Source of the DNA: an uncultured Gammaproteobacteria bacterium
GTDB lineage: Bacteria > Patescibacteriota > Microgenomatia > UBA12405
Length of the DNA: 47,697 bases
Direction: 5' to 3'
Assembly: GCA_964464785.1 (NCBI GenBank)
Contig: CAYXLS010000001.1
Location: 1 to 47,697, forward strand
Positions within the stretch are counted from its first letter, which is position 1, and every line of letters begins with the position of its first letter. The position numbers and the translations under genes are program-made. Positions 19,506 to 32,364 of the stretch are shown in pieces. Under the pieces are notes generated by a model. The model did no database searches. It saw nothing but the letters and a program-made list of their open reading frames with translations, and had not been told where the DNA came from.

Positions 19506-20326
19506 TTTTTGTCCCAGTCTTGGGATAAATTTATATCTCGTTTAGTTTTAGATAATTCATAATATTTAGTATAAGCAATGGGATATCTAAGGGCTGAGAA
19601 AAAAGAGAAAACAAAACCAGAAAAACCATCAACATAGCCACGATGACGAAAAAATGTTTTGAAAAACCACCAACATGGCTTAAAAACATAATAATTTACT
19701 CCGCTTAAAAAATTAATTTTTACATTTTTTTCCTTTAATTCTTGAGACAATAAGGTTGTATAGCGATTAGCTCGAAGTAAATATAAAGAAAAAGAGGTAT
19801 CGGCATAATGCTCAAAATCATTTTTGAGATAACCTATTTTCCCATCAACTTTGGCTTGTTCGTGAACATCTTTACAAGGCAAATATCCTTTGTCTTTTTT
19901 GTATAAACGAATAGTGTAGTCTGGATATTGTCCACCTTTGGTAAGGAAACTACCTAAAAAATAATTTTTTCTGGGAATCCAATAACCGTTTTCTAAAATT
20001 GAACTGGGATCTTTTTCTAAAATTGAAACAATTTCTTTTTTAAGATTGGCAGTGACTATTTCGTCAGCATCAAGTTGGAGAATCCAATCAGATTTACATG
20101 CATCAATCCCCATTTGTTTATTGATATGGAACATGGGTTTGTTGGTAGTCGAGATAACTTTAGCTTGTTTAAATTTTTCAACTAATTTGGCTGTGTTATC
20201 TTGTGATTGACCATCGACAACGATAATCTCATTGGCGATATCTTTTATCGCCTCAAGACAACGAACAATATTTTTCGACTCATTGTAGGTTGCCAAAGTA
20301 ACCGAAAGTGTTGATTTATTTTTCAT
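19502..20326 (-). CDS. Family 2 glycosyltransferase (COG0463, WaaE/KdtX-like small GT2)
   Basis: 274 aa. LSVTLATYNESKNI, VVDGQSQDNT and LQLDADE. C-terminal block WIPRKNYFLGSFLTKGGQYPDYTIRLY is shared with the GT2s at 38752 and 40455. Confidence 0.75.
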   Translation of the reverse strand: MKNKSTLSVTLATYNESKNIVRCLEAIKDIANEIIVVDGQSQDNTAKLVEKFKQAKVISTTNKPMFHINKQMGIDACKSDWILQLDADEIVTANLKKEIVSILEKDPSSILENGYWIPRKNYFLGSFLTKGGQYPDYTIRLYKKDKGYLPCKDVHEQAKVDGKIGYLKNDFEHYADTSFSLYLLRANRYTTLLSQELKEKNVKINFLSGVNYYVFKPCWWFFKTFFRHRGYVDGFSGFVFSFFSALRYPIAYTKYYELSKTKRDINLSQDWDKK

Positions 20327-21935
20327 AAATTTTAAAGGCTGCTGTTTGATTTGAAAAATTAATAATATTTATGGGATTTGAAGGAATTTTTTCATCAGAA
20401 GCTACTATTAATGAATTGCTGGGAATGTTGTCCCAATCAATTTTACCAAAATGATAATTATCATAGCTATTAACAGTAGAAAAACCAAATTTGTCTGGTT
20501 GGGTTAATTTGATTTGTGATTGAATAAGTTTTGGATTGTAATGAGAATAGAATAAAAAAAGGATGTAAGGTTGGTCGTATTTATTGGTAATATAAATATT
20601 GTCATAGTCAAATTTTTTTGATTCCACATATGGTACTAATTGGTCAAATTGATATTGCCAAGCAAATGGATAACGTTTGGCATAATGAAAGAAATAACTA
20701 TCGAGATAATAAGCAACAAAGTAAAAGTATAAAACTAAAAATAAAATGGATACAAGATTTATGATTCTAGATTTATGAATAAGACTAAATAACCAATAAA
20801 TTCCACAGGAAATTAAAATTGAAAGAGGAATAACCATTGATAGAGATCGAAGAGCAGATGGGGCTTGGAAAGTTAGAGATGAAGCAATTGGTGATATTAA
20901 TAGAAATAATATAATAAAGATTTTAAATTTACGATTAATGATTAAAGATTTAAGAATAAAAATAAGACCTAAAATTAAAAGTGGTATTTCGATTAGGTGA
21001 ATTTGTCCCATTTCAGGTACTTTTGAACGAGGAACCTCATCTCCATTGATAGACAGAAAATTTAAATCAAAATGAGATGAATAATTATCGGCCCAGGAAA
21101 TAAGATAAAGAATTCTTTTATTATGCATTATGCGGTTTATTAGCTTGATATTGTTGTGATGATTTATAAGTTCATTAGCACGATTGATTGGACCCATATC
21201 AGCGGACAAACCCACTCCTCCAAGACGAGTAGTACCACCGTTATTTAAAAATGAAAATAATACTGGGAGTAAAAGTAAAATTCCAAGAATAATTGGAATA
21301 ATTAGTTGGGGTAATTTTTTAATTAAAAATTTAGAATATAAAATAAAAAGACTTAAAGCTAGCAACGGAGCTATCAGACGAGCTGAATGATATATATAGA
21401 GAGAAAGTATGAAGTTTAGTATGAAAAGGGAAAAATTAAATAAAAATTTTTGTTTGATTGATTTAAAGAAAAAATAAGAACCGATGACAATAAAAGATAG
21501 TGCAGCCGATGATTCCCAAGCACCACGACTAAAATGAATATGCCATGGTGATAATGATAGTACTATAGAGCTATAGAGTCCTAGTGTATTGGATTTTGTC
21601 AAAAGAAATATCAATTTATATAAAAAAATAATTGTTAATATTGATAGAATGAGATTAGGTAAGCGAACGGAAAGAGGATTTAATCCTAAAAATTTTATAA
21701 AAGGAAGGGCTAAATAGACATAACCACCAGGTTTATAATCCCCAAAAGATTTAAAATGGAGAGGCCAAGAAACACCATGTTCATCTTTGCCAGTAAGTAA
21801 TAAAGAATATGCATTGTATCCGAGAGAAGCTTCGTCTGGGTTTAAGGCAGGGGTGTTGCTTAAATCGATAAATCGAATTAGAAAAGCAAAAAAAATTATT
21901 ATTGGTAGAAATATTTTATGGATTTTCATAAGCAT
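20316..21935 (-). CDS. GT-C fold membrane glycosyltransferase, ArnT/PMT (GT39/GT83, COG1807) type, paralog 7
   Basis: 539 aa. NPDEASLGYNAYSLLLTGKDEHG, FKSFGDYKPGGYVY, SVRLPN and SPWHIHFSRGAWE. Many TM helices and a C-terminal soluble roughly 130 aa. Confidence 0.75.
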   Translation of the reverse strand: MLMKIHKIFLPIIIFFAFLIRFIDLSNTPALNPDEASLGYNAYSLLLTGKDEHGVSWPLHFKSFGDYKPGGYVYLALPFIKFLGLNPLSVRLPNLILSILTIIFLYKLIFLLTKSNTLGLYSSIVLSLSPWHIHFSRGAWESSAALSFIVIGSYFFFKSIKQKFLFNFSLFILNFILSLYIYHSARLIAPLLALSLFILYSKFLIKKLPQLIIPIILGILLLLPVLFSFLNNGGTTRLGGVGLSADMGPINRANELINHHNNIKLINRIMHNKRILYLISWADNYSSHFDLNFLSINGDEVPRSKVPEMGQIHLIEIPLLILGLIFILKSLIINRKFKIFIILFLLISPIASSLTFQAPSALRSLSMVIPLSILISCGIYWLFSLIHKSRIINLVSILFLVLYFYFVAYYLDSYFFHYAKRYPFAWQYQFDQLVPYVESKKFDYDNIYITNKYDQPYILFLFYSHYNPKLIQSQIKLTQPDKFGFSTVNSYDNYHFGKIDWDNIPSNSLIVASDEKIPSNPINIINFSNQTAAFKIYEK

Positions 21936-23568
21936 AGAATGTAGAAATATTACTTATTGGGCTAAGAAGAAAAAATTGATTAAATTCTGGTTTTTTGTCA
22001 ATAGCTTGACGATAAATTTCTTCTTGAGAAAAAATACCAAGAGAACCTGGATTATTTTTAATATATTCAAAACTTGGTGTAGAAAATTTTATTTTATCGA
22101 TTGACTCGACATTCCCAATATCAATTGAGTTATTTGTAAGTTTTGCTTGTTTTTGATAAATACTTGGAGAATATTTCGAATAAAATAAGTAATAAATGTA
22201 TGGTTGACCATAGAAATTTGTGAAAGTAATATTTTCAAATTTATTTTGGTTTTCTATTAAATATTTTATTGAAGACTTATATCCATATAAAAGATCATAG
22301 GGATTTTTTTTGGTAGTATGATTTAAGTATAAATCGGAATAATAAATAAAAGAAAATATATAAAGCAAAAAAAAGACAATATATAAAATTAAATTTTTAA
22401 ATTTAGTAAAAAATAAATATATACCCAAAGAAATAAAATATATCAAGGGAATTGAAAAAGACATCGATCTAACCGCGTGGACTGAATCACGAGTAAGTGC
22501 AGAAGGGATAGGGGCAACTAATAACCATAATAAAAAGAAAATATTTAATTTATCAATTTTTGGTTGACTAAGTGATCTAAATAAGCCAATTATAAAAAAA
22601 ATAAGACTAGGATATAAAATTACTCCTATGTAAGGAGCTGAATGCCGTGGGTTTTGCCAATCACCATCAAAAATTAAAAAACGAGGTGAAAAATGGTTAA
22701 AATAACGGGTTAAAAAATTTCTAACAAAAAATATGAATCGATTGTGAAAAATATTATAATCTAACTTATTTGTTTCACTTATTATTGTTTGAGTTTCTTG
22801 ACTGGAACGAGGATAGGAAAATAAGCTAACAACTTTAAGTCGATTTGAATTATTTTGGAATAATAGTCCATAAATAATTGGAATGGTAAATAGCCCAAGT
22901 GGAATTATAAAATTGAAAAATATTTGGGTATAGTTAATTTTTTTAAAATTAACAAAGAATAAAATAATTATTAAAAATAAACTAATCATTTTACCTGCTT
23001 GATAGGTATATAAAGACAAACCAAAAATTAAAGAAGAATAAAATATGTATTTACTTTTATGAAAATTTATATATTTAAAAAATAATAAAGCGGCGGCGAC
23101 TAATTCAAAAGTCAAAATATTAGCCTCCCAGGCTCCTCGACTAAAATGGATATTATAAGGATTGATAGCCATAATAAGGCTAGAAATTATTGCAGTTTTA
23201 TGGGCTTTGGGATTAATTTCTTTGATAAGAAAATAAAGAATTATAGGTAAAAGTGAACCTAAGATTATGGATGGAAAACGAACTGAAAATTCTGAAAGTC
23301 CAAAAAGATAGACAAATGGTATGGTTAAATATACATAAAATCCGGGTTTATAATCACCGAATGATTTAAAGATTATGGGGAAAAAAGTTCCATATTCATC
23401 TTTGCTTGTTTTTAAAATAGAATAAGCATTGTAGCCAAGAGCCGCCTCGTCCCAAAGTAATGGTATAGTTTGAATGTAAAGGGATCTAATTAAAAAACTT
23501 AAGATGAAAATAGAAAACAAAATTATTAATATTTTATTCTTTAACATTTTTAGGTATGGTTTCAACAA
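21916..23568 (-). CDS. GT-C fold membrane glycosyltransferase, ArnT/PMT type, paralog 6
   Basis: 550 aa. LWDEAALGYNAYSILKTSKDEYG, FKSFGDYKPGFYVY, SVRFPS and NPYNIHFSRGAWE. Confidence 0.75.
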   Translation of the reverse strand: MLKPYLKMLKNKILIILFSIFILSFLIRSLYIQTIPLLWDEAALGYNAYSILKTSKDEYGTFFPIIFKSFGDYKPGFYVYLTIPFVYLFGLSEFSVRFPSIILGSLLPIILYFLIKEINPKAHKTAIISSLIMAINPYNIHFSRGAWEANILTFELVAAALLFFKYINFHKSKYIFYSSLIFGLSLYTYQAGKMISLFLIIILFFVNFKKINYTQIFFNFIIPLGLFTIPIIYGLLFQNNSNRLKVVSLFSYPRSSQETQTIISETNKLDYNIFHNRFIFFVRNFLTRYFNHFSPRFLIFDGDWQNPRHSAPYIGVILYPSLIFFIIGLFRSLSQPKIDKLNIFFLLWLLVAPIPSALTRDSVHAVRSMSFSIPLIYFISLGIYLFFTKFKNLILYIVFFLLYIFSFIYYSDLYLNHTTKKNPYDLLYGYKSSIKYLIENQNKFENITFTNFYGQPYIYYLFYSKYSPSIYQKQAKLTNNSIDIGNVESIDKIKFSTPSFEYIKNNPGSLGIFSQEEIYRQAIDKKPEFNQFFLLSPISNISTFYAYENP

Positions 23569-25150
23569 ATAAGAATCCTGTTTTACCGTTTAAAAAGTCT
23601 ATTTTTTTTATTATTTGATTTTCTGGAATCTTGGTGTCTAAAAAGTCCCAAGGAGCAGCAATTAAAAGTCGATTAGGTTTTTCTGAATCGACCGACCAGG
23701 TAATTCGATGAAATGAAATTTTATCAATATTTCGAGTTTGATAATATGTTTTTGGATCAGATTGACAATAAAATAAAACATAAAGATAAGGTAACCCAGT
23801 ATTAAGGGGACCATAACTTCCAAAAGTTTCTGAAATTATAATTTCGTCATATTTATCTTTATGTTCACAAGCAAATTGGGCAATTTGCTTGTAACCATAT
23901 TGCCAATATTCTGAAAAATGTTTTGGGGATTGATATTTATATATATCAATAAAATAGATGATATTAATAAATAATAAAAGATAATAAACAAAAAATATTA
24001 TTTTTTTAAATTTAGATTTTGTTATAAATTCAAATCCATGTGCAATTATTAAGGCAAGTGCTGGTATCCAAACTAAGGCACGAAGTGGGTGTTGTTCGTT
24101 CATAGCAAAAGAAGCCGGTAGAGGTCCTAAAATTAACCAAATTAAAGTAATTTTAGAAAGATAGTAACTATTCTTTTTGAATAAATAGTAAATACCAATG
24201 AAAAATAATGGCAAATCAATAAAATACAATAGACCAACTCCTGGGTAACCTGGTTGAGTAAATTGCATACCATTCCAAAATATAAATTCAAAGTTAAAAT
24301 AATTTAGATATTTGCTTAGCCAATGTCGAAAAATGATATAGGCATCGTTATCAAATATAAATTCTTGAATATTTTGATAATTTCCATGATGAAGAGCTGA
24401 AATCAGAGTTGTTTCTCGAAAAATTGAAGTGACAGTGGCTCGAGTTTTTATGGCAGGTGTAAAAAATGATAATTTTAGAAATGGAACTGTGAAGATAGCT
24501 AAAACCAATAATGCCCAACATAGTTGTTTTTTGGTTTTATATAGATTTATTTTTGATCCATATAAAATAATCAAAGTTACTACAAAGATAGGGACAAGCA
24601 ATCGTTCGGCGTGATATGACCACACAGATAAACTAAAGGCAACGACTGAACTTATTAGTGTTGCTAATTTATTTTTTTCAACCCAGGAAATAAATAAATA
24701 GGTACCAAGGATTAAAAAAAATAAAGCGGTAACAGCTTCGAAACTCGCCCTGGAGAAATGAATATGCCAAGGTAAAATGCTTAGCCAGAGACCAGTAAGG
24801 TAAGATGCAGTTGGTTTAATTTTTAATTTTAATAGTAGTAAGACAATAAAAATTATAGTAAGTGATCCGATAAGAGCAGATGGTAATCTAGTGGCAAATT
24901 CAGTAAGTCCAAAAATTGCAATAAAAGGAACAGTAAGGTAGACGTTTACTGGTGGTTTATAATCCCCTACTGATTTGAAAGCTAAAGGAAGAAACTCTCC
25001 CCACTCATCACGTCCAGTTTTTAGAATTGAATAAGCATTGTAACCAATAGCAGTTTCATCCATCGATAGGCTTACTGGATATTTAGTTAATTGATAGAAT
25101 CGAAAGACTATTCCGATGATAAAAAGTAGAAGTAATAATTTTTTTTTCAT
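23534..25150 (-). CDS. GT-C fold membrane glycosyltransferase, ArnT/PMT type, paralog 5
   Basis: 538 aa. SMDETAIGYNAYSILKTGRDEWG, FKSVGDYKPPVNVY, ATRLPS and LPWHIHFSRASFE. Confidence 0.75.
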   Translation of the reverse strand: MKKKLLLLLFIIGIVFRFYQLTKYPVSLSMDETAIGYNAYSILKTGRDEWGEFLPLAFKSVGDYKPPVNVYLTVPFIAIFGLTEFATRLPSALIGSLTIIFIVLLLLKLKIKPTASYLTGLWLSILPWHIHFSRASFEAVTALFFLILGTYLFISWVEKNKLATLISSVVAFSLSVWSYHAERLLVPIFVVTLIILYGSKINLYKTKKQLCWALLVLAIFTVPFLKLSFFTPAIKTRATVTSIFRETTLISALHHGNYQNIQEFIFDNDAYIIFRHWLSKYLNYFNFEFIFWNGMQFTQPGYPGVGLLYFIDLPLFFIGIYYLFKKNSYYLSKITLIWLILGPLPASFAMNEQHPLRALVWIPALALIIAHGFEFITKSKFKKIIFFVYYLLLFINIIYFIDIYKYQSPKHFSEYWQYGYKQIAQFACEHKDKYDEIIISETFGSYGPLNTGLPYLYVLFYCQSDPKTYYQTRNIDKISFHRITWSVDSEKPNRLLIAAPWDFLDTKIPENQIIKKIDFLNGKTGFLFVETIPKNVKE

Positions 25151-25764
25151 AGTCTAGTTATTAGAAAAACTCTTAAAAAAAGATAGAGGGAATAAATAGA
25201 AAAAATTAACAAAAATATTTTTTTATTTTTTGGTTTCCAAAAAGATATTTCATAAGCACTGCAGTATAAATAAAATAATGCAGTAGGAAAAAGAAAATAT
25301 AAATTGTATTGGCCAGAAATATATCCAAGTAATACCGATAATAAGCCTATTAATAAGTATTTGAGTTTGTATTTAATTATTAATCTATATAAACCAATTA
25401 TTGTAACTGGTAATAATAAAATTGCGATTGGTTCGATTTTTGGAGGAGAATCTACTTGTCCAGTACCTGATTGGAAATAAAAACGAGGGTTTAGGTTATT
25501 TAAATAAATAATAGACTCGGAAACTAATAATTGAGATTTGTTATAAAAAAATCTACCCCAAAATGGTCGATTATCTTTGGTTACATCGTTCCAGCGAAAT
25601 TCATCAATATATTTTGTGTTTGTAAATATAGAGGTTACCTTTTTATTTATATATGAGGGAATCTTTTTATATTCAAATATTATTTTATTTTGATTTACCA
25701 AAAATTGCCACCAAAAAAATGGAGAAATCAAAAGTAATATTAAATAGATATTTTTAGTTTTCAT
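25147..25764 (-). CDS. Small membrane protein homologous only to the central loop-plus-helix region of the flanking GT-C paralogs (mini-paralog)
   Basis: 205 aa. N-terminal anchor helix, a roughly 90-aa loop, then 3-4 helices. IIYLNNLNPRFYFQSGTGQVDSPPKIEPIAILLLPVTIIGLYRLI aligns with FLTRYFNHFSPRFLIFDGDWQNPRHSAPYIGVILYPSLIFFIIGLFRSL of the 550-aa paralog. It lacks the DE-motif N-terminal third and the C-terminal soluble domain. Confidence 0.6.
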   Translation of the reverse strand: MKTKNIYLILLLISPFFWWQFLVNQNKIIFEYKKIPSYINKKVTSIFTNTKYIDEFRWNDVTKDNRPFWGRFFYNKSQLLVSESIIYLNNLNPRFYFQSGTGQVDSPPKIEPIAILLLPVTIIGLYRLIIKYKLKYLLIGLLSVLLGYISGQYNLYFLFPTALFYLYCSAYEISFWKPKNKKIFLLIFSIYSLYLFLRVFLITRL

Positions 25765-25765
25765 T

Positions 25766-27352
25766 TTAAATTTCTAAAATATCAAAAGCAGGTGTGTTGT
25801 CTAAAAATTTAATAGTATTAATTAAGTGATTCCCTTGATTGTAGTTGTTTGGAGAAGTAATTAAAAGGGTATTGTTTGTTGGATTGATATTTAAAATATA
25901 TTCTTTAATTTCCCAATCATTGACAAATTTAAATTTATCAAAACCATTAATCCAGTACCAATTGGCGTGAAAGTCCCAAATTTTATTAGAATCATTTTGA
26001 TATTTAGATGGATCCCAAGGCCAATAAAATAATAAAAATTCATGTGGTTCGCCGTATTTTTTGGTAACTATAAATTGATCATAATTTTGGTAATTTTTTT
26101 GAATAAAAGCAACCATATCTTGATATCCATATTGCCAGGACGATGAATATTGGGTGGCATATGATTTATAAGATGGCCAAAATAGTATTTGTCCAACTAT
26201 TAATACAAAAAAAACAAAGCAGGTAATAATTTTGGGGATTTTTTTATAAATAAAATTTATTCCAATTGTAATTAATATTACAATAACAGGTAAGATAGAG
26301 ATACTTCTAAGAACATGAGGGGCGTCTCTAGTAATACTTGAGGGTAGCGGTGCTATTAAGAGCCAAAATAGTAATATTTGATTATTTTTTTGCTGAATAT
26401 TTTTGATTAAGTAATATAAGCCAAAAATTGAGAAAGGTATAAAAAATGGTGATATTAAAAAGAAATTTGGAAGACTAAATTGATAATGAGATCCACCATT
26501 TAAAAATATAAAATTAGGAGTGAAATGACTTAAATAGTTTTTGGTGGCTGTATATGTAAAATAAGTAACTTTGTTGATTATTAATCTAGGGTAAGATTGT
26601 CTAAGTTCATTTATTTTGTTTATAGAACCTTGATCGAGTAAAGAAACCCATTGGTATCTTGCTTGACCTGATTGATTTAGTGTTTGGAAAACTGTTAATG
26701 CTGTCAAAAATATAAAAGGAATAAATTTGTAAAAGCTATTAAAAATTTTGACCTTATCTTTGACTAATAAATAAATAAGTAAAACAAAATAAAGAGGGAG
26801 TATAACTCGACTACTATTATAGGTGAATAATGTAACTCCATAAATAAAAGTACTTAAGGGATATTTTTTTTGAATTAGAAAATAAATACTAAGACAAAAT
26901 AATAATAGAAATAAATTTGCTTCAAGAGCTATTCTTGATAAAAATATAGTACCTGGAGAAAAGGAGATAATCGATGCTCCTAATAATGGTAACTTTAAAT
27001 TGTTTAAAAATATTTTTTTTAGTATTAGATAAACCACTAAAGGTATTAATGAACCAGCTAAAATAGAAACTAGGCGAACAGAAAAACTGTTTAGACCTAA
27101 TAATAAGACCGAAGGGACGGATAAATAAATATAAACAGGTAATTTGTAATCACCAAAACATCTAAAAATTGATGGCATAAAATTCCCCCATTCATCTCTC
27201 CCTGTTTTTAAGATGGAATATGCATTGTAGCCATGGGAAACTTCGTCCCAATTTAAACTTGGTGGAATTTTATCTAAATTAACAATCCTTAAAATAAAAG
27301 ATATTATTAAAATAATTATTAATAAATATTTGTCTTTTTTTAAAAAAATCAT
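25766..27352 (-). CDS. GT-C fold membrane glycosyltransferase, ArnT/PMT type, paralog 4
   Basis: 528 aa. NWDEVSHGYNAYSILKTGRDEWG, FRCFGDYKLPVYIY and SVRLVS. The SPW-HIH-SR block has diverged to SPGTIFLSR. Confidence 0.75.
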   Translation of the reverse strand: MIFLKKDKYLLIIILIISFILRIVNLDKIPPSLNWDEVSHGYNAYSILKTGRDEWGNFMPSIFRCFGDYKLPVYIYLSVPSVLLLGLNSFSVRLVSILAGSLIPLVVYLILKKIFLNNLKLPLLGASIISFSPGTIFLSRIALEANLFLLLFCLSIYFLIQKKYPLSTFIYGVTLFTYNSSRVILPLYFVLLIYLLVKDKVKIFNSFYKFIPFIFLTALTVFQTLNQSGQARYQWVSLLDQGSINKINELRQSYPRLIINKVTYFTYTATKNYLSHFTPNFIFLNGGSHYQFSLPNFFLISPFFIPFSIFGLYYLIKNIQQKNNQILLFWLLIAPLPSSITRDAPHVLRSISILPVIVILITIGINFIYKKIPKIITCFVFFVLIVGQILFWPSYKSYATQYSSSWQYGYQDMVAFIQKNYQNYDQFIVTKKYGEPHEFLLFYWPWDPSKYQNDSNKIWDFHANWYWINGFDKFKFVNDWEIKEYILNINPTNNTLLITSPNNYNQGNHLINTIKFLDNTPAFDILEI

Positions 27353-29043
27353 TTGAGAGTTATTAAATAATAAGACAAATTATCTTCAAAAATTGTTTTT
27401 TCAGTATCAATTACCTCTATATCTACGTTTTTATTATTTTTTATTAGTTCATATTCATTTTGGTTTATGACAAACAAACAACTGGAACAATTTTCTTTTA
27501 GAGAATTTATATTACTCCAATCAATTTGGCCAAAATAATATTTATCGTTGGCTTGTAATCCTGAAAAAAATGTTGAAGTTTCAGATATTAATGATTTTGT
27601 TGGTGCAGAATAATTTTTGGTAGATTTATATTGAGTGTAGTAAAGGAAAAAAGGAAGCATCGATTCATCTCGACTACTATAATAGATTTTTGAAAAATTA
27701 TTTTTTTGTTGTTGTGAAGACATAATTATCTCTTTTATACCAGTATGCCAATATCTGGCGGAAATTAGAGGATAGCGATAATTATAACTAAACCAAAAAT
27801 ATGAAAAATTAAAAATAAAAAAAAGAATTAAGAATAAAAATAAATACTTTGATAATTTAAAAATTTTTTCATATCCATAAGATAAAAAATAAATTAAACT
27901 TGGTAGCATTAAAATCAACCTGGTTGCGTGGGCAGAATTTGAGTCACGAGTTAAAGAATAAGGTATGGGTGCAAATAAAAGTAAAAGAATAAAAAAAGAT
28001 GAGAATTTAGAGTTTATTTTAAGTGAATAAATAATACCTAATAAAATAATAAATATATCAAAATAGAAAAAATATCCTTGTGTACCAAAACCTTGTCTTA
28101 GATTAGAATCACCTTTAAATACTAAAAAATCCATTGAAAATGAAGAAAAATAATTTTTTAAGAAAGTTCTAGATACTAAAGTTAATTTGTTATTAAAAAA
28201 TTTTGATAAAAAACTAGGAGAAACACCGATAGACCCATAATTAGTTATTAAAATATCGGAATATCGTTCATAATCAACTCTGGCTGAGAGTGTTGGATCG
28301 GAAAAAATATTTATATATGAAAAACGATTGTTAGATTTGGTAAATAAAGTACTGTGTATTAAGGGTAATAAGGTAACAAAACAAAATATAATTGGTAATA
28401 ATAGATTTTTAATAGGAATTTTGAATAAAGTTTTTTTCCATACTACTAAAATACTTAGAAAAATAAAAAATATAAAAAGTTTTGCCGTGCTATAAAAGTA
28501 TGGTGTTAGAGAAAAACTTATTAAAGACAAAGATAATAATTTATTATTTTTTGTTCTTAAAAATTTACTTAAAAATAATATTCCTAATATAAAAAATAAT
28601 AACATTCCAGTGATAGATTCAAAATTTGTTCGGCTATAATGAATGTGCCAGGGTGACAAACTAATAAATAAAAGTGAAATCAAAGATAATCTATTAGATT
28701 TAGTAATTTGTAAAATCGATAAATAAAAAAATATTAAGGAAAGTATTCCAAAAATTATTGAAGGCAATTTGAGGCTATAAATATTAATTCCTATTAGTTT
28801 TTGAAATAAAGATACCGGTAAGATTGAAAATGGGGTATGCCAGTCAGAATATGATTGAAAAAATATAGGAAATTTATTACCAAAATAATCAGTAAAAGTT
28901 CTATTGAAAGTTATTGCTTGATAGCCAATATCTACTTCGTCGGAAAATATTGATGGAGGTATTTTTGATAGGTTAGATAATCTTAAAAATATTGCTAGTA
29001 GAATAATTGATATAACAGTAATTATATGTATCTTGTTTTTCAT
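27349..29043 (-). CDS. GT-C fold membrane glycosyltransferase, ArnT/PMT type, paralog 3
   Basis: 564 aa. FSDEVDIGYQAITFNRTFTDYFG, FQSYSDWHTP, SLKLPS and SPWHIHYSRTNFE. Confidence 0.7.
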   Translation of the reverse strand: MKNKIHIITVISIILLAIFLRLSNLSKIPPSIFSDEVDIGYQAITFNRTFTDYFGNKFPIFFQSYSDWHTPFSILPVSLFQKLIGINIYSLKLPSIIFGILSLIFFYLSILQITKSNRLSLISLLFISLSPWHIHYSRTNFESITGMLLFFILGILFLSKFLRTKNNKLLSLSLISFSLTPYFYSTAKLFIFFIFLSILVVWKKTLFKIPIKNLLLPIIFCFVTLLPLIHSTLFTKSNNRFSYINIFSDPTLSARVDYERYSDILITNYGSIGVSPSFLSKFFNNKLTLVSRTFLKNYFSSFSMDFLVFKGDSNLRQGFGTQGYFFYFDIFIILLGIIYSLKINSKFSSFFILLLLFAPIPYSLTRDSNSAHATRLILMLPSLIYFLSYGYEKIFKLSKYLFLFLILFFIFNFSYFWFSYNYRYPLISARYWHTGIKEIIMSSQQQKNNFSKIYYSSRDESMLPFFLYYTQYKSTKNYSAPTKSLISETSTFFSGLQANDKYYFGQIDWSNINSLKENCSSCLFVINQNEYELIKNNKNVDIEVIDTEKTIFEDNLSYYLITLK

Positions 29044-29044
29044 T

Positions 29045-30694
29045 TTATTTGGTATGTAGTAGGTAAATAGCTGGTTCTGGTTTCGATTTATTAGGATAAT
29101 AAATAATATAGTCTGGTTTTATGTCTCTAAATTCATCAGGACGACCAATAATTAGTGTATTAGACAATTGACTGTCACTAGGGATATTAATTTCTCTAAA
29201 AATAAATTTATCTAATGAATATTCTCCGAGTTGGTCTAAAAAAGAAAGATTTTTTGATTCATATTCTAGCCAATTTACAGTATTCGATTGAGTAATTTTT
29301 GGATTTATTTTTTGAAAAAATGTGACATACGATTGAGGTTCAGAAAGTTTTCGGGAATAAATTATTTGATTAGATGATGTTTTTTTAATAATTTCATTGG
29401 CTTCACGATGGCCAAAAAGCATACCAGAGGCAAGTATCTGATTACCTTGATAAAAATATCTAATTAAAAAAGATAAATTAAAAAATAAAAATATTAATCC
29501 TAAAATTGTTAATAAATATGGTTTTAGATTAATCGATACATTATTTAAAAAAGTTACTAAACCATACGCAGAAATTATTTGTAAAAAAGGCATCATTAAA
29601 GAAACTCTATTACCAGAATACTGACCTTTAGCAATTGAGGCAATAAATGGTGGAATTAGAATGATGGAAAATAAAAAAAATAGATTATTAATATTTTTGG
29701 AATCTTTCTTTTGAAAAATATAAATAATGCTTAATAATAGACCTAAAGTTGGGATAATACCTAAGACTCCAAAACCAGGAATCATGCCATAAGTGGTTTC
29801 CCCAGCTCCTTGTGTTATTAAAAATTGAGGAGAAAAATAAGATAAATAACTTTGAGAAAAAATTTCATAGATATAAACAATTTTGTTATAAACAAGTCGA
29901 GTTATAATTTTTGGTAAACCATTTTGAGAAATTTCATATTGAGCGTTTGAGACTTGTTGCCAGTTATCAGTTGGGTTGAAAATGGCAATATCTTTTGTTC
30001 GATTTATTTTAATTTGATTATTTTGATAAAAATTTAATAATAAAAATAAACTAAAAAATATAGTTGGAAGTATAAAAACCTTTTTTGGTTGGTATTTTTT
30101 TTGAAAAAATATTAATAAGATTAATAATATAGGAGTGAATATTTTGGCACTATGATATGTAAAAAGGCTTAATCCAAAAAAAAGTGAAGAAAACACATAA
30201 AGTGTGATTGATTTGTTCTCGTTGGCTTTTAGATATAAGTATGTTGCTAATGCAATAATAAACACTACTAAATTAGCTTCTAGAGCAATTCTTGACATTG
30301 GAAGAGCCCATGGAGATATAGCCATAAAAAGTGTGCTTAAAAGAGAAATTGAATAATCTTTAAACAATTTTTGAGAAATGAGAAAAGTAAAAAGAAGTGT
30401 AAAAATAGATAATAATGCATTGGGGAAACGAACAGCAAATGGGGTTAGGCTAAAAATTTTTATTGAAGGAATTAAAAGTAGGGTTTGTAGTGGTGGTTTG
30501 TAGTCGCCAAATGAACGTAAATTTAACCAATTAGTGCTACCCCACTCATCGGCTCCAGTTGAGAGAATGGAATAAGCACTATATCCTTGGGCTAATTCAT
30601 CAGGTGTATATGAGTTTGGAATTGATCCAAGTTTGTATAACCTAAGGAAAGCCCCAAGAATAATGATTAAAATTAAAATTACTTTTGTTTTCAT
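29045..30694 (-). CDS. GT-C fold membrane glycosyltransferase, ArnT/PMT type, paralog 2
   Basis: 549 aa. TPDELAQGYSAYSILSTGADEWG, LRSFGDYKPPLQT, AVRFPN and SPWALPMSRIALE. Confidence 0.75.
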   Translation of the reverse strand: MKTKVILILIIILGAFLRLYKLGSIPNSYTPDELAQGYSAYSILSTGADEWGSTNWLNLRSFGDYKPPLQTLLLIPSIKIFSLTPFAVRFPNALLSIFTLLFTFLISQKLFKDYSISLLSTLFMAISPWALPMSRIALEANLVVFIIALATYLYLKANENKSITLYVFSSLFFGLSLFTYHSAKIFTPILLILLIFFQKKYQPKKVFILPTIFFSLFLLLNFYQNNQIKINRTKDIAIFNPTDNWQQVSNAQYEISQNGLPKIITRLVYNKIVYIYEIFSQSYLSYFSPQFLITQGAGETTYGMIPGFGVLGIIPTLGLLLSIIYIFQKKDSKNINNLFFLFSIILIPPFIASIAKGQYSGNRVSLMMPFLQIISAYGLVTFLNNVSINLKPYLLTILGLIFLFFNLSFLIRYFYQGNQILASGMLFGHREANEIIKKTSSNQIIYSRKLSEPQSYVTFFQKINPKITQSNTVNWLEYESKNLSFLDQLGEYSLDKFIFREINIPSDSQLSNTLIIGRPDEFRDIKPDYIIYYPNKSKPEPAIYLLHTK

Positions 30695-32364
30695 AATTTT
30701 TGAATTATTTGAGCCAAAATGGTGTTGTTGGGATTGTATACGGTTTTAATTGTTTTAAATCCATCTAAATATTTTTTTGTAAAATCCATGTCTCCTGGGA
30801 TATCAAAACCTTGAAATAATAAAAATATATCCCCGGGTTGAGCAATTTGATTAACTGCGGATAAATGATCATTTTGTTTATAGTCATTTATAAAAAATAT
30901 ATTTTTGTAAAGTTTAAATCCTGATAACCCTGAAATTATATTATTAATATTATTATCATCTAGAAAACCATTGTTGGTAGAATATTTTTGATAAAAAGTA
31001 AAAGGTAATAAAGAATTGTACAAAGCATTGCTAATATAAATGTTTTTGTTTGTTTTTGGAATATTTTGGAATAACTCTTTATAACCATAATTCCAGACTT
31101 CAAAAGAATCTTTAGGATAATGAATAAAATATTCATGTGAGTAGCCAATAATTTGAATAATTAAAAAAAGGCTTAAAATAAATAAAAAAAATTTAACAAA
31201 AATATTTTTTAATAAAAAGCTTTTTTGTAATCCAAGAGCAGTGAAATATGACAATGGAACAATCATAATAAATAGTCTAGTAGCATGGGTACTGCCATCG
31301 ATAGTTAGAGATGATGCTATTGGTGCAATTAAAAACCAAAAAAACATTAATTTATTTAATTTATCCTTAAAATCAAGCTGAAAAATACCATAGAGGAGGA
31401 ATGGTAAATAGGAAAGGAAAATTAGTCCAAAATTTGGAATAGTGTGTCGATAATTTATTTGATCACCATATATAAAAAGAAAAGATAAAGAAAAAGAAGA
31501 AATATAATTTTTTGTAAATTCTCCTCCCCAAGCAGTGGCTTTATTGTGGAAAATAACTTCTATTTTAGGAGAAATAGCTGAAAAAGAGGTCCTTTTTTCA
31601 ATAATTTGGTTAATAATATTTTGATTATTAAAAATACTGATAAGATTGAAACGATTAGCGGCAGTGCCAAAAAATATTTGTAACGATAAAGGTAATATTA
31701 ATAATAAAAATAAAATTAAAGATATCAAAAAATTTTTAAATTTAATTTTAGAAATAAAATTTTTTAAATTAGTAACAATAATAGTAATAATAATTAAAGG
31801 AACAAAAATATTAGCGATGTTGTAGGTATAAAAACTAAGACAAAATATAAATATAGATAAATAGAGATATTTATTTTTACCAAAGTTTAAAAATTTATAG
31901 AAGAAAAATATTCCAGTTAGAATTAGTGATAGAAGTAAAGTAACTTCAAAAGAGGTACGACTATAATGAAAATGCCAAGGAGTAAAAGATAAGGCTATAG
32001 AGCCATAAAAAGCGAGAGTGCTAGATTTTGATAATAGTGATACTAGTTTATAAAAAATATATATACTAAAAACACCAAATAATATTGAGGGAAAACGCAC
32101 CCCAACTTCATTTAATCCAAGTAAAGCTATACTTGGTACAGTAGTATAAATTAATAAAGGAGCGCGTGACTCAGATAAAGATTGAATATAGGTAGGTAAA
32201 AAATTACCTTTATAATCGTGACCATTTTGAAATAAAGAATAGGCTTGATAACCGACATCAATTTCGTCTCCAAACAAACTTAGAGTATCTATTTTATAAA
32301 TTCGTAAAAAAAAAGTGATTAAAAGAAGTATAATTAAAGGCCAGTTTAATTTTTTAAATTTCAC
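30691..32364 (-). CDS. GT-C fold membrane glycosyltransferase, ArnT/PMT type, paralog 1
   Basis: 557 aa. FGDEIDVGYQAYSLFQNGHDYKG, GVRFPS and TPWHFHYSRTSFE. Confidence 0.7.
   Translation of the reverse strand: MKFKKLNWPLIILLLITFFLRIYKIDTLSLFGDEIDVGYQAYSLFQNGHDYKGNFLPTYIQSLSESRAPLLIYTTVPSIALLGLNEVGVRFPSILFGVFSIYIFYKLVSLLSKSSTLAFYGSIALSFTPWHFHYSRTSFEVTLLLSLILTGIFFFYKFLNFGKNKYLYLSIFIFCLSFYTYNIANIFVPLIIITIIVTNLKNFISKIKFKNFLISLILFLLLILPLSLQIFFGTAANRFNLISIFNNQNIINQIIEKRTSFSAISPKIEVIFHNKATAWGGEFTKNYISSFSLSFLFIYGDQINYRHTIPNFGLIFLSYLPFLLYGIFQLDFKDKLNKLMFFWFLIAPIASSLTIDGSTHATRLFIMIVPLSYFTALGLQKSFLLKNIFVKFFLFILSLFLIIQIIGYSHEYFIHYPKDSFEVWNYGYKELFQNIPKTNKNIYISNALYNSLLPFTFYQKYSTNNGFLDDNNINNIISGLSGFKLYKNIFFINDYKQNDHLSAVNQIAQPGDIFLLFQGFDIPGDMDFTKKYLDGFKTIKTVYNPNNTILAQIIQKL

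Follow-up and report, generated by a model that had tools for sequence, protein, structure and literature searches.

GT-C glycosyltransferases occur in all domains of life, where they synthesize surface glycans, glycolipids and glycoproteins. Enzymes of the GT-C_A type comprise a conserved module of seven transmembrane (TM) helices, whose first luminal loop carries the catalytic base, and, following it, a variable module (PMC13503287). In ALG9 and ALG12 the variable module consists of four TM helices and a luminal domain, and in GT-C_A enzymes generally it makes most of the contacts with the acceptor (PMC13503287). The choice of the acceptor by GT-C enzymes is only now being resolved structurally, the variable module being the part responsible. 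Here we analyze a stretch of DNA of 47,697 nucleotides (nt) from an uncultured bacterium of the GTDB lineage Microgenomatia (assembly GCA_964464785.1, contig CAYXLS010000001.1, positions 1 to 47,697), referred to as the window in the following. Within an array of GT-C genes, the window contains a gene (25147..25764, minus strand) for a protein of only 205 amino acids (aa), which we call the mini, directly upstream of the gene for a full-length GT-C of 538 aa (23534..25150, minus strand), which we call the partner.

The mini shows the same order and orientation of helices as the variable module of GT-C_A enzymes of the PMT_2/ArnT/PMT type (CAZy GT39/GT83-like; ArnT, 5ezm/5f15; PglB, 5ogl; STT3; Pmt4, 9i5k). 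Unlike the variable module of these enzymes, however, it is encoded on its own, as a polypeptide of about 205 aa that lacks the seven-helix conserved module, the Asp/Glu of external loop 1 (EL1) and the C-terminal outer domain. The kind of role that we propose for the mini is known from glycosylphosphatidylinositol (GPI) mannosyltransferase I, in which the GT-C PIG-M/Gpi14 requires the small non-catalytic subunit PIG-X/Pbn1, dedicated to it in a 1:1 pairing. In the Gpi14-Pbn1 complex, a TM helix of Pbn1 packs against the variable-module helices TM8 and TM12 and against external loop 4 (EL4) (PMC12653191). Such an interaction has been shown for Pbn1, whereas for the mini we infer it. Also, Pbn1/PIG-X has no relationship to GT-C enzymes; it spans the membrane once and carries a beta-rich luminal domain, whereas the mini is a five-TM fragment of a GT-C paralog.

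A second comparison is offered by PIG-U, a non-catalytic, lipid-binding scaffold subunit of the GPI transamidase that has a GT-C fold (PMC6056205, PMC12653191). PIG-U resembles the mini in being a GT-C relative that has lost catalysis, and it serves in a membrane complex. However, the GT-C fold is complete in PIG-U, whereas of its membrane part only the rear third is present in the mini; moreover, the partner of PIG-U is the transamidase and that of the mini a GT-C paralog. The GPI transamidase entry 9ub7_B was among the weak fold matches of the partner model. Neither Pbn1/PIG-X nor PIG-U is a truncated paralog of its partner. Hetero-oligomers of paralogous GT-Cs are known in Pmt1-Pmt2 and EmbA-EmbB; there, in contrast to the mini, both members are full-length enzymes. 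The solved complexes 6p25 and 7bvf were among the fold matches of the partner model.

In the literature on stand-alone GT-C modules and on GT-C enzymes of Candidate Phyla Radiation (CPR) bacteria, we found no description of the mini, and for this enzyme class a split GT-C with a separate variable-module subunit has not been described. The mini represents a natural experiment on an excised variable module, which selection maintains and which strictly accompanies a single catalytic paralog, and, if our reading is true, the pair is possibly the first bacterial GT-C with a dedicated subunit derived from a paralog. The annotation of such genes changes as well: mini genes that are called hypothetical, or might be mistaken for pseudogene fragments, mark a specific two-gene unit within surface-glycan loci that are large and as yet unexplored, in the ultrasmall CPR (Microgenomates) bacteria.

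The Mini Gene Is Paired With a Single GT-C Orthogroup

According to open reading frame (ORF) calling and translation, the mini gene starts with ATG and encodes a protein with five TM helices. It is located between the fourth and the fifth paralog, in order of transcription, of seven GT-C genes arranged head-to-tail (20316 to 32364, minus strand; products of 528-564 aa). The stop codon of the upstream paralog (25766..27352, minus strand; 528 aa) is found 1 nt before the ATG of the mini gene. Downstream, the TGA of the mini gene and the ATG of the partner gene overlap by 4 nt (ATGA; 25147..25150, minus strand), a stop/start arrangement typical of translational coupling. The initial annotation of this DNA had reported the ORF with the same coordinates, strand and start codon, the 1-nt gap and the ATGA overlap, and all of these were confirmed. 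It had also noted that no non-coding remnant flanks the gene and, indeed, the locus has no spare non-coding DNA on either side.

Whether a similar short gene occupies the same position in related arrays was a question raised by the initial annotation. At 15 out of 15 loci, found in the window, on metagenome contigs and in 12 genomes that belong to several GTDB families, the mini gene lies directly 5' of a full-length GT-C gene, which is the next gene on the same strand, and at most of the 15 junctions stop and start codons overlap or abut. In a tree of 54 full-length GT-Cs from mini loci, the partners of the 12 typical minis form one clade (stem 0.85) with a support of 100 in the Shimodaira-Hasegawa-like approximate likelihood ratio test (SH-aLRT) and with zero non-partners inside, and the sub-clades of the mini tree and of the partner tree are congruent. 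As a test of the predicted upstream mini, three distant orthologs of the partner (46-50% identity, one of them labelled Woesebacteria) were retrieved. Directly upstream of each there is a small ORF, and these ORFs match the hidden Markov model (HMM) of the mini with E values of 6e-46, 1e-31 and 2e-10. In a sample of 401 genomes of the larger class, the partner profile reached at least 600 bits in 11 genomes, which are exactly the 11 that possess a mini at E ≤ 4.5e-21; the next partner-profile score was 514 bits and discordant genomes were absent (0/401). The mini therefore co-occurs strictly with one catalytic GT-C, as would be expected of a dedicated accessory subunit. The upstream neighbour of the mini is not conserved, since in one GTDB family (f20) and at locus L048 the pair stands without an array, whereas the downstream neighbour is conserved. 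We regard it as practically certain that the mini is a real, conserved, GT-C-derived gene that is paired with one GT-C lineage.

Two other short ORFs were encountered directly 5' of full-length GT-C genes, in these cases of GT-Cs outside the main partner clade. One of them encodes 212 aa (L044 8365-9003, plus strand; genome G047) and the other one 237 aa (L043 8564-9277, minus strand; genome G191). The L044-type ORF is closer to the enzyme profile (E 3e-21) than to that of the mini (E 4e-10) and has short relatives of 156-225 aa (P0257, P0262, P0259 and P0268; E 1e-27 to 1e-44), and a relative of the L043 type is P0264 (238 aa). These observations suggest that the L044 and L043 types are further, possibly independent, subfamilies of stand-alone variable modules.

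On a metagenome contig that carries P0034 (L001 10612-15004), the mini is intact and the partner gene is collinear, though with three frameshifts (frames 1, 2, 3, 1). The two paralogs that follow the broken partner gene are likewise in pieces, and the breaks may reflect an error of long-read assembly or real decay.

The Mini Corresponds to the Central Module of GT-C Enzymes

The mini is the counterpart of TM7, EL4 and TM8-11 of PMT_2/ArnT-like GT-Cs. When the single mini sequence was compared with the seven paralogs of the window using hhalign, residues 42-189 aligned with columns 249-405 (E 2.6e-6), and with the profile of the 39-member mini family residues 11-183 aligned with columns 230-399 (probability 95.8%, E 7.1e-9). 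The initial annotation had proposed that the mini aligns solely with the mid-protein block of its neighbours and had named a lack of significant profile similarity as the result that would speak against it; the similarity found is significant. In agreement with this, a search of 1.84 billion representative proteins with the mini profile (hmmsearch) ranked short proteins first and then full-length GT-Cs of 517-573 aa (E 1.9e-10 to 7e-4), whose matches were confined to their residues ~200-415. In the 401 class genomes, the same profile matched the centre of 500-600-aa GT-C frames, with E values down to 2e-10.

In a multiple alignment of the mini with the seven paralogs, N75, Y87, F95 and G100 (mini numbering) are invariant in all eight proteins. 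The peptide stretches quoted in the initial annotation are present, but the spacing given there, Y-x3-F-x3-F-x3-G, is wrong and should read Y-x3-[F/L]-x3-F-x4-G. Similarly, the N-terminal helix that had been taken for an anchor of the mini does exist but is not a new one, as it aligns with TM7 of the paralogs, P15 of the mini being equivalent to P223 of the partner.

Residues 1-200 of the paralogs, including the invariant D31-E32, have no counterpart in the mini, which begins at the equivalent of TM7, and the C-terminal outer domain of the paralogs is absent as well. The full-length partner does possess the D31-E32 loop and with it the equipment for catalysis. The view that the mini consists of the central module only, with neither the catalytic N-terminus nor the C-terminal domain, therefore holds. 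Arg357 (partner numbering), which is invariant in the seven paralogs and in 45 aligned enzymes, is replaced by Tyr or Phe in the mini, and Pro343, invariant among the paralogs, is not retained. The D-E loop, the C-terminal domain, Arg357 and Pro343 are thus all missing from the mini, for which transferase activity by the known mechanism is excluded.

The Pfam models for this class of enzymes do not recognize the mini. It did not reach the gathering score of PMT_2 (PF13231; 10.8 bits versus a cutoff of 26.1, E 0.59) or that of PMT (PF02366), and only 2 out of the 39 family members matched PMT_2, with a best E value of 0.019. PF13231, which the initial annotation had suggested for comparison, turned out to be unsuitable because it spans TM2-6 and its weak match to the mini is out of register. 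No match to PMT_4TMC (PF16192) was obtained for the 39 members of the mini family at E ≤ 10 or for the seven paralogs at E ≤ 1, and the likeness of the mini to PMT_4TMC is one of position in the fold only. Pfam and NCBIfam scans provided no family model for the mini or for the 39 members, and no match to GtrA, Wzx or another flippase. A sequence search of the PDB with the mini family profile gave a proteasome subunit as the best hit (E 1.7) and no solved relative.

Topology and Predicted Structure of the Mini and Its Partner

The first TM helix of the mini (residues 6-23, IYLILLLISPFFWWQFLV; 25696..25749, minus strand) is homologous to TM7 of the full-length enzymes; its residues P15, F17 and W18 are invariant in the family, and W19 and Q20 are nearly so. 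It is followed by an external loop of ~89 aa (residues 24-112; 25429..25695, minus strand) that corresponds to EL4 of the paralogs in the alignments. The most conserved block of the protein, YLNNLNPRFYFQSG(S/T)GQxDSPPxIEP, is situated at the end of this loop (residues 87-112; 25429-25506, minus strand). The four C-terminal TM helices (residues 113-203; 25156..25428, minus strand) are equivalent to TM8-11 of the variable module. With a charge of +2, the N-terminus is expected to be cytoplasmic, as are the K/R-rich short loops 131-136 and 174-182, and the C-terminus is expected outside. Charge counts over the family therefore predict, according to the positive-inside rule, a topology with the N-terminus inside and the 89-aa loop and the C-terminus outside, which is the membrane orientation of the corresponding segments in the full enzyme.

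An AlphaFold2 (AF2) model of the mini, with a predicted local distance difference test (pLDDT) score of 82.3, displays one TM helix, loop helices at residues 27-55, 68-89 and 94-98, and four TM helices at 117-203. The order of the helices is that of the matching stretch of the partner model, and helices 68-89 and 94-98 correspond to helices 269-283 and 287-292 of the partner. The partner was modelled with a pLDDT of 91.5 and a predicted template modelling (pTM) score of 0.90. It is predicted to have a GT-C_A fold, because Foldseek matched its model to STT3, ArnT, PglB and Pmt4 at E 4e-7 to 4e-5 (STT3, ArnT and PglB at ~4e-7 to 1e-6). In this model, the helix at residues 203-230 leads into a helical external loop (residues 232-311), after which come four TM helices (residues 312-412) and a C-terminal domain of mixed alpha/beta structure (residues 420-538), in agreement with the scheme of a conserved plus a variable module (PMC13503287).

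The N-terminal 250 residues of the partner also gave a sub-threshold NCBIfam match to TIGR03663 ('flippase activity-associated protein Agl23'; E 2e-9, 37 bits versus a cutoff of 126).

The Mini Family Is Conserved and Under Purifying Selection

A word-indexed search for relatives of the mini yielded 39 clusters of 196-210 aa with 36-99% identity, several of which are named as hypothetical proteins of Candidatus Shapirobacteria, and an exhaustive search yielded about 98 short clusters at 50% identity with a median length of 205 aa. The family alignment contains 16 invariant and ~40 nearly invariant columns. Some conserved blocks, namely ISPFFWWQ, EFRWND and PRFYFQSGSGQxDSPP, are specific for the mini and are not found in the enzymes. 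For orthologs of 73-78% identity, the ratio of nonsynonymous to synonymous substitution rates (dN/dS; NG86) of the mini was 0.12-0.17, whereas the partner had 0.08 and the upstream paralog 0.10-0.16; these values are approximate because dS (0.7-1.7) is near saturation. Despite the roughness of these figures, the ORF is clearly under purifying constraint, and the relaxed selection that the initial annotation had named as the sign of a remnant is not what was found.

In one genome of the GTDB family to which the window belongs (G299; L042 8950-9555, minus strand), the mini match contains one in-frame TGA and the ORF sits on a very long branch (2.28). The copy may be degenerating; alternatively, the TGA may stem from a sequencing error or be read as sense.

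Probable Origin of the Mini and Proposed Co-adaptation of the Partner

In a tree of central modules, the minis group together with a support of 94/94; their stem is long, and they are nested in no enzyme clade. When the mini profile was compared with the profiles of the enzyme clades at equal taxon sampling (hhalign; clades are named here by the start coordinate of their member in the window), the closest was clade 25766, that of the upstream paralog (E 3.1e-12), followed by clades 30691 (4.7e-9), 29045 (2.5e-7), 21916 (7e-7), 20316 (1.1e-5) and 27349 (1.5e-4), and the least similar was clade 23534, that of the partner (1.7e-4). It is likely, as far as these profile similarities indicate, that the mini descended from a canonical paralog near the upstream clade.

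Regions of the partner differ in their stem lengths, for which branch lengths were re-estimated per region with the topology fixed. In the central module, the stem of the partner clade has a length of 1.80 substitutions per site, whereas the N-terminal module gives 0.38 and the C-terminal domain 0.56; the central-module stems of five other clades range from 0.31 to 0.91. The variable module of the partner thus appears to have been rebuilt around the time when the pairing arose and to have been conserved since.

Two other origins were considered and rejected. A partial tandem duplication of the partner does not fit, as the mini resembles the partner clade less than any of the other six (1.7e-4 versus 3e-12 for the upstream clade) and the mini is nested in no clade. 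A fusion or read-through product with a neighbouring gene is contradicted on both sides: the upstream gene lies in another frame than the mini and ends with TAA, and a read-through fusion with the partner is implausible because the mini, with five TM helices, has its C-terminus outside and the partner its N-terminus inside. A fused mini-GT-C of ~750 aa was not found among the 112 library matches obtained with hmmsearch.

In two genomes without a mini, the best match of the mini profile is the centre of a full-length GT-C (G127:C6:675-1208 and G210:C21:5911-6405). In both, the gene of this GT-C is located immediately upstream of the best partner-like gene of the genome (506-514 bits), an arrangement that is consistent with an origin of the mini from the lineage of the upstream paralog.

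Possible Functions of the Mini

The reading that we favour, and that we hold to be rather probable, is that the mini is a dedicated non-catalytic subunit physically bound to the partner. The mini reproduces, in a polypeptide of its own, the final conserved-module helix (TM7), the long EL4 and the four variable-module helices (TM8-11), and its gene is inherited and translated together with one full-length GT-C orthogroup, that of the gene immediately downstream. As a subunit, it would assemble in the membrane beside the partner. Acting as a second variable-module surface, it might add or reshape a binding surface for the acceptor or for the lipid carrier; alternatively, it might stabilize the partner, whose own variable module is heavily remodelled. 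A role at the acceptor or carrier surface is probable because, in GT-C_A enzymes, the acceptor is contacted mainly through the variable module (PMC13503287), and either this or a stabilizing role is what our analysis makes probable. The exact co-occurrence, the translational coupling, by which co-expression with the partner is fixed, the congruent sub-clades and the remodelled module of the partner render a bound subunit the most economical explanation. The initial annotation had suggested a domesticated fragment that may act as a non-catalytic subunit, adaptor or regulator of the GT-C enzymes, and a domesticated fragment serving as a non-catalytic subunit is also the best-supported reading here, but the mini is tied to one orthogroup, that of the downstream gene, and not to the whole array.

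Several points weigh against a bound subunit. The central module of the partner is the least mini-like of the seven, so that a simple pseudo-homodimer model is not supported. In a Foldseek search of the PDB, the mini model alone found no significant match, PglB being at the top with E 2.4. The distribution is patchy, both mini and partner being unfound in 6 out of 7 other searched genomes of the genus to which the window belongs, and the pair is thus an accessory unit that is dispensable for the lineage. Also, the near-saturated dS values noted above make the dN/dS figures imprecise, and co-inheritance and coupling would also be expected of two proteins that take part in one step but do not bind to each other.

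A more far-reaching proposal, which we advance only tentatively, is that of a split GT-C of two polypeptides. The Microgenomates would use the variable module as a free-standing, exchangeable specificity subunit, and the remodelled partner would borrow this second module in trans for its acceptor. The L044 and L043 types would then mean that such a design arose, or was re-paired, repeatedly.

It seems unlikely that the mini acts in the pathway step of the partner without being bound to it, for instance by holding or presenting a polyprenyl-linked acceptor or donor, by recycling or flipping polyprenyl phosphate, or by chaperoning a lipid-linked intermediate, and in doing so reuses an inherited lipid- or glycan-binding surface. 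The descent of the mini from the acceptor-contacting module of GT-C_A enzymes (PMC13503287), its conservation and coupling with one GT-C, and the loop motifs of its own that the paralogs do not have (EFRWND, PRFYFQSGSGQxDSPP) would all be compatible with this. However, its distribution tracks one GT-C orthogroup exactly and not a donor synthase or the array, it resembles none of the flippase families in Pfam or NCBIfam, including GtrA and Wzx, and it does not possess Arg357, for which a role at the carrier phosphate may be assumed from PglB and ArnT. The remodelled module of the partner is also better explained by co-adaptation.

Truncated paralogs that act as inhibitors are a known general theme, and the mini, which has lost all catalytic parts and kept the fold of an interaction or substrate module, might be a regulatory decoy, a dead fragment acting like a dominant-negative truncated paralog: by binding either the partner or its substrate, it would restrict the activity of the partner or control its timing. 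We consider this improbable, since a co-expression fixed by coupling suits a structural subunit more than a regulator and since none of the searched genomes has a gene of the partner clade without a mini, which would be odd for a brake.

That the mini is a decaying gene without function, left over from a full-length paralog after the loss of both ends, is extremely improbable and was rejected on the grounds of conservation and dN/dS: although it matches only part of a paralog, is located in a paralog array and has a relative in G299 with an in-frame TGA on a long branch, its length of ~200 aa is held across the approximately 98 clusters, sixteen columns are invariant, dN/dS is low, flanking non-coding DNA is absent, and position and stop/start overlap are kept in several GTDB families and with proteins labelled Shapirobacteria and Woesebacteria.

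The GT-C Array of the Window

Six out of the seven paralogs of the array match PMT_2 (E 1e-10 to 1.2e-4), and five of these six also match PMT (PF02366). For the partner (23534-25150), the respective E values are 2.2e-10 for PMT_2 and 5.1e-6 for PMT. The remaining paralog (20316-21935) matches PMT only (E 9.9e-5). A DPM1-like synthase is also encoded in the locus. Each of the seven paralogs (20316-32364) belongs to an orthologous clade that is common to other GTDB families, and the gene order is largely retained in the arrays of L033, L034, L035, L040 and L044. Because the clades are shared and the gene order is largely retained, the array is ancient and does not result from a recent amplification.

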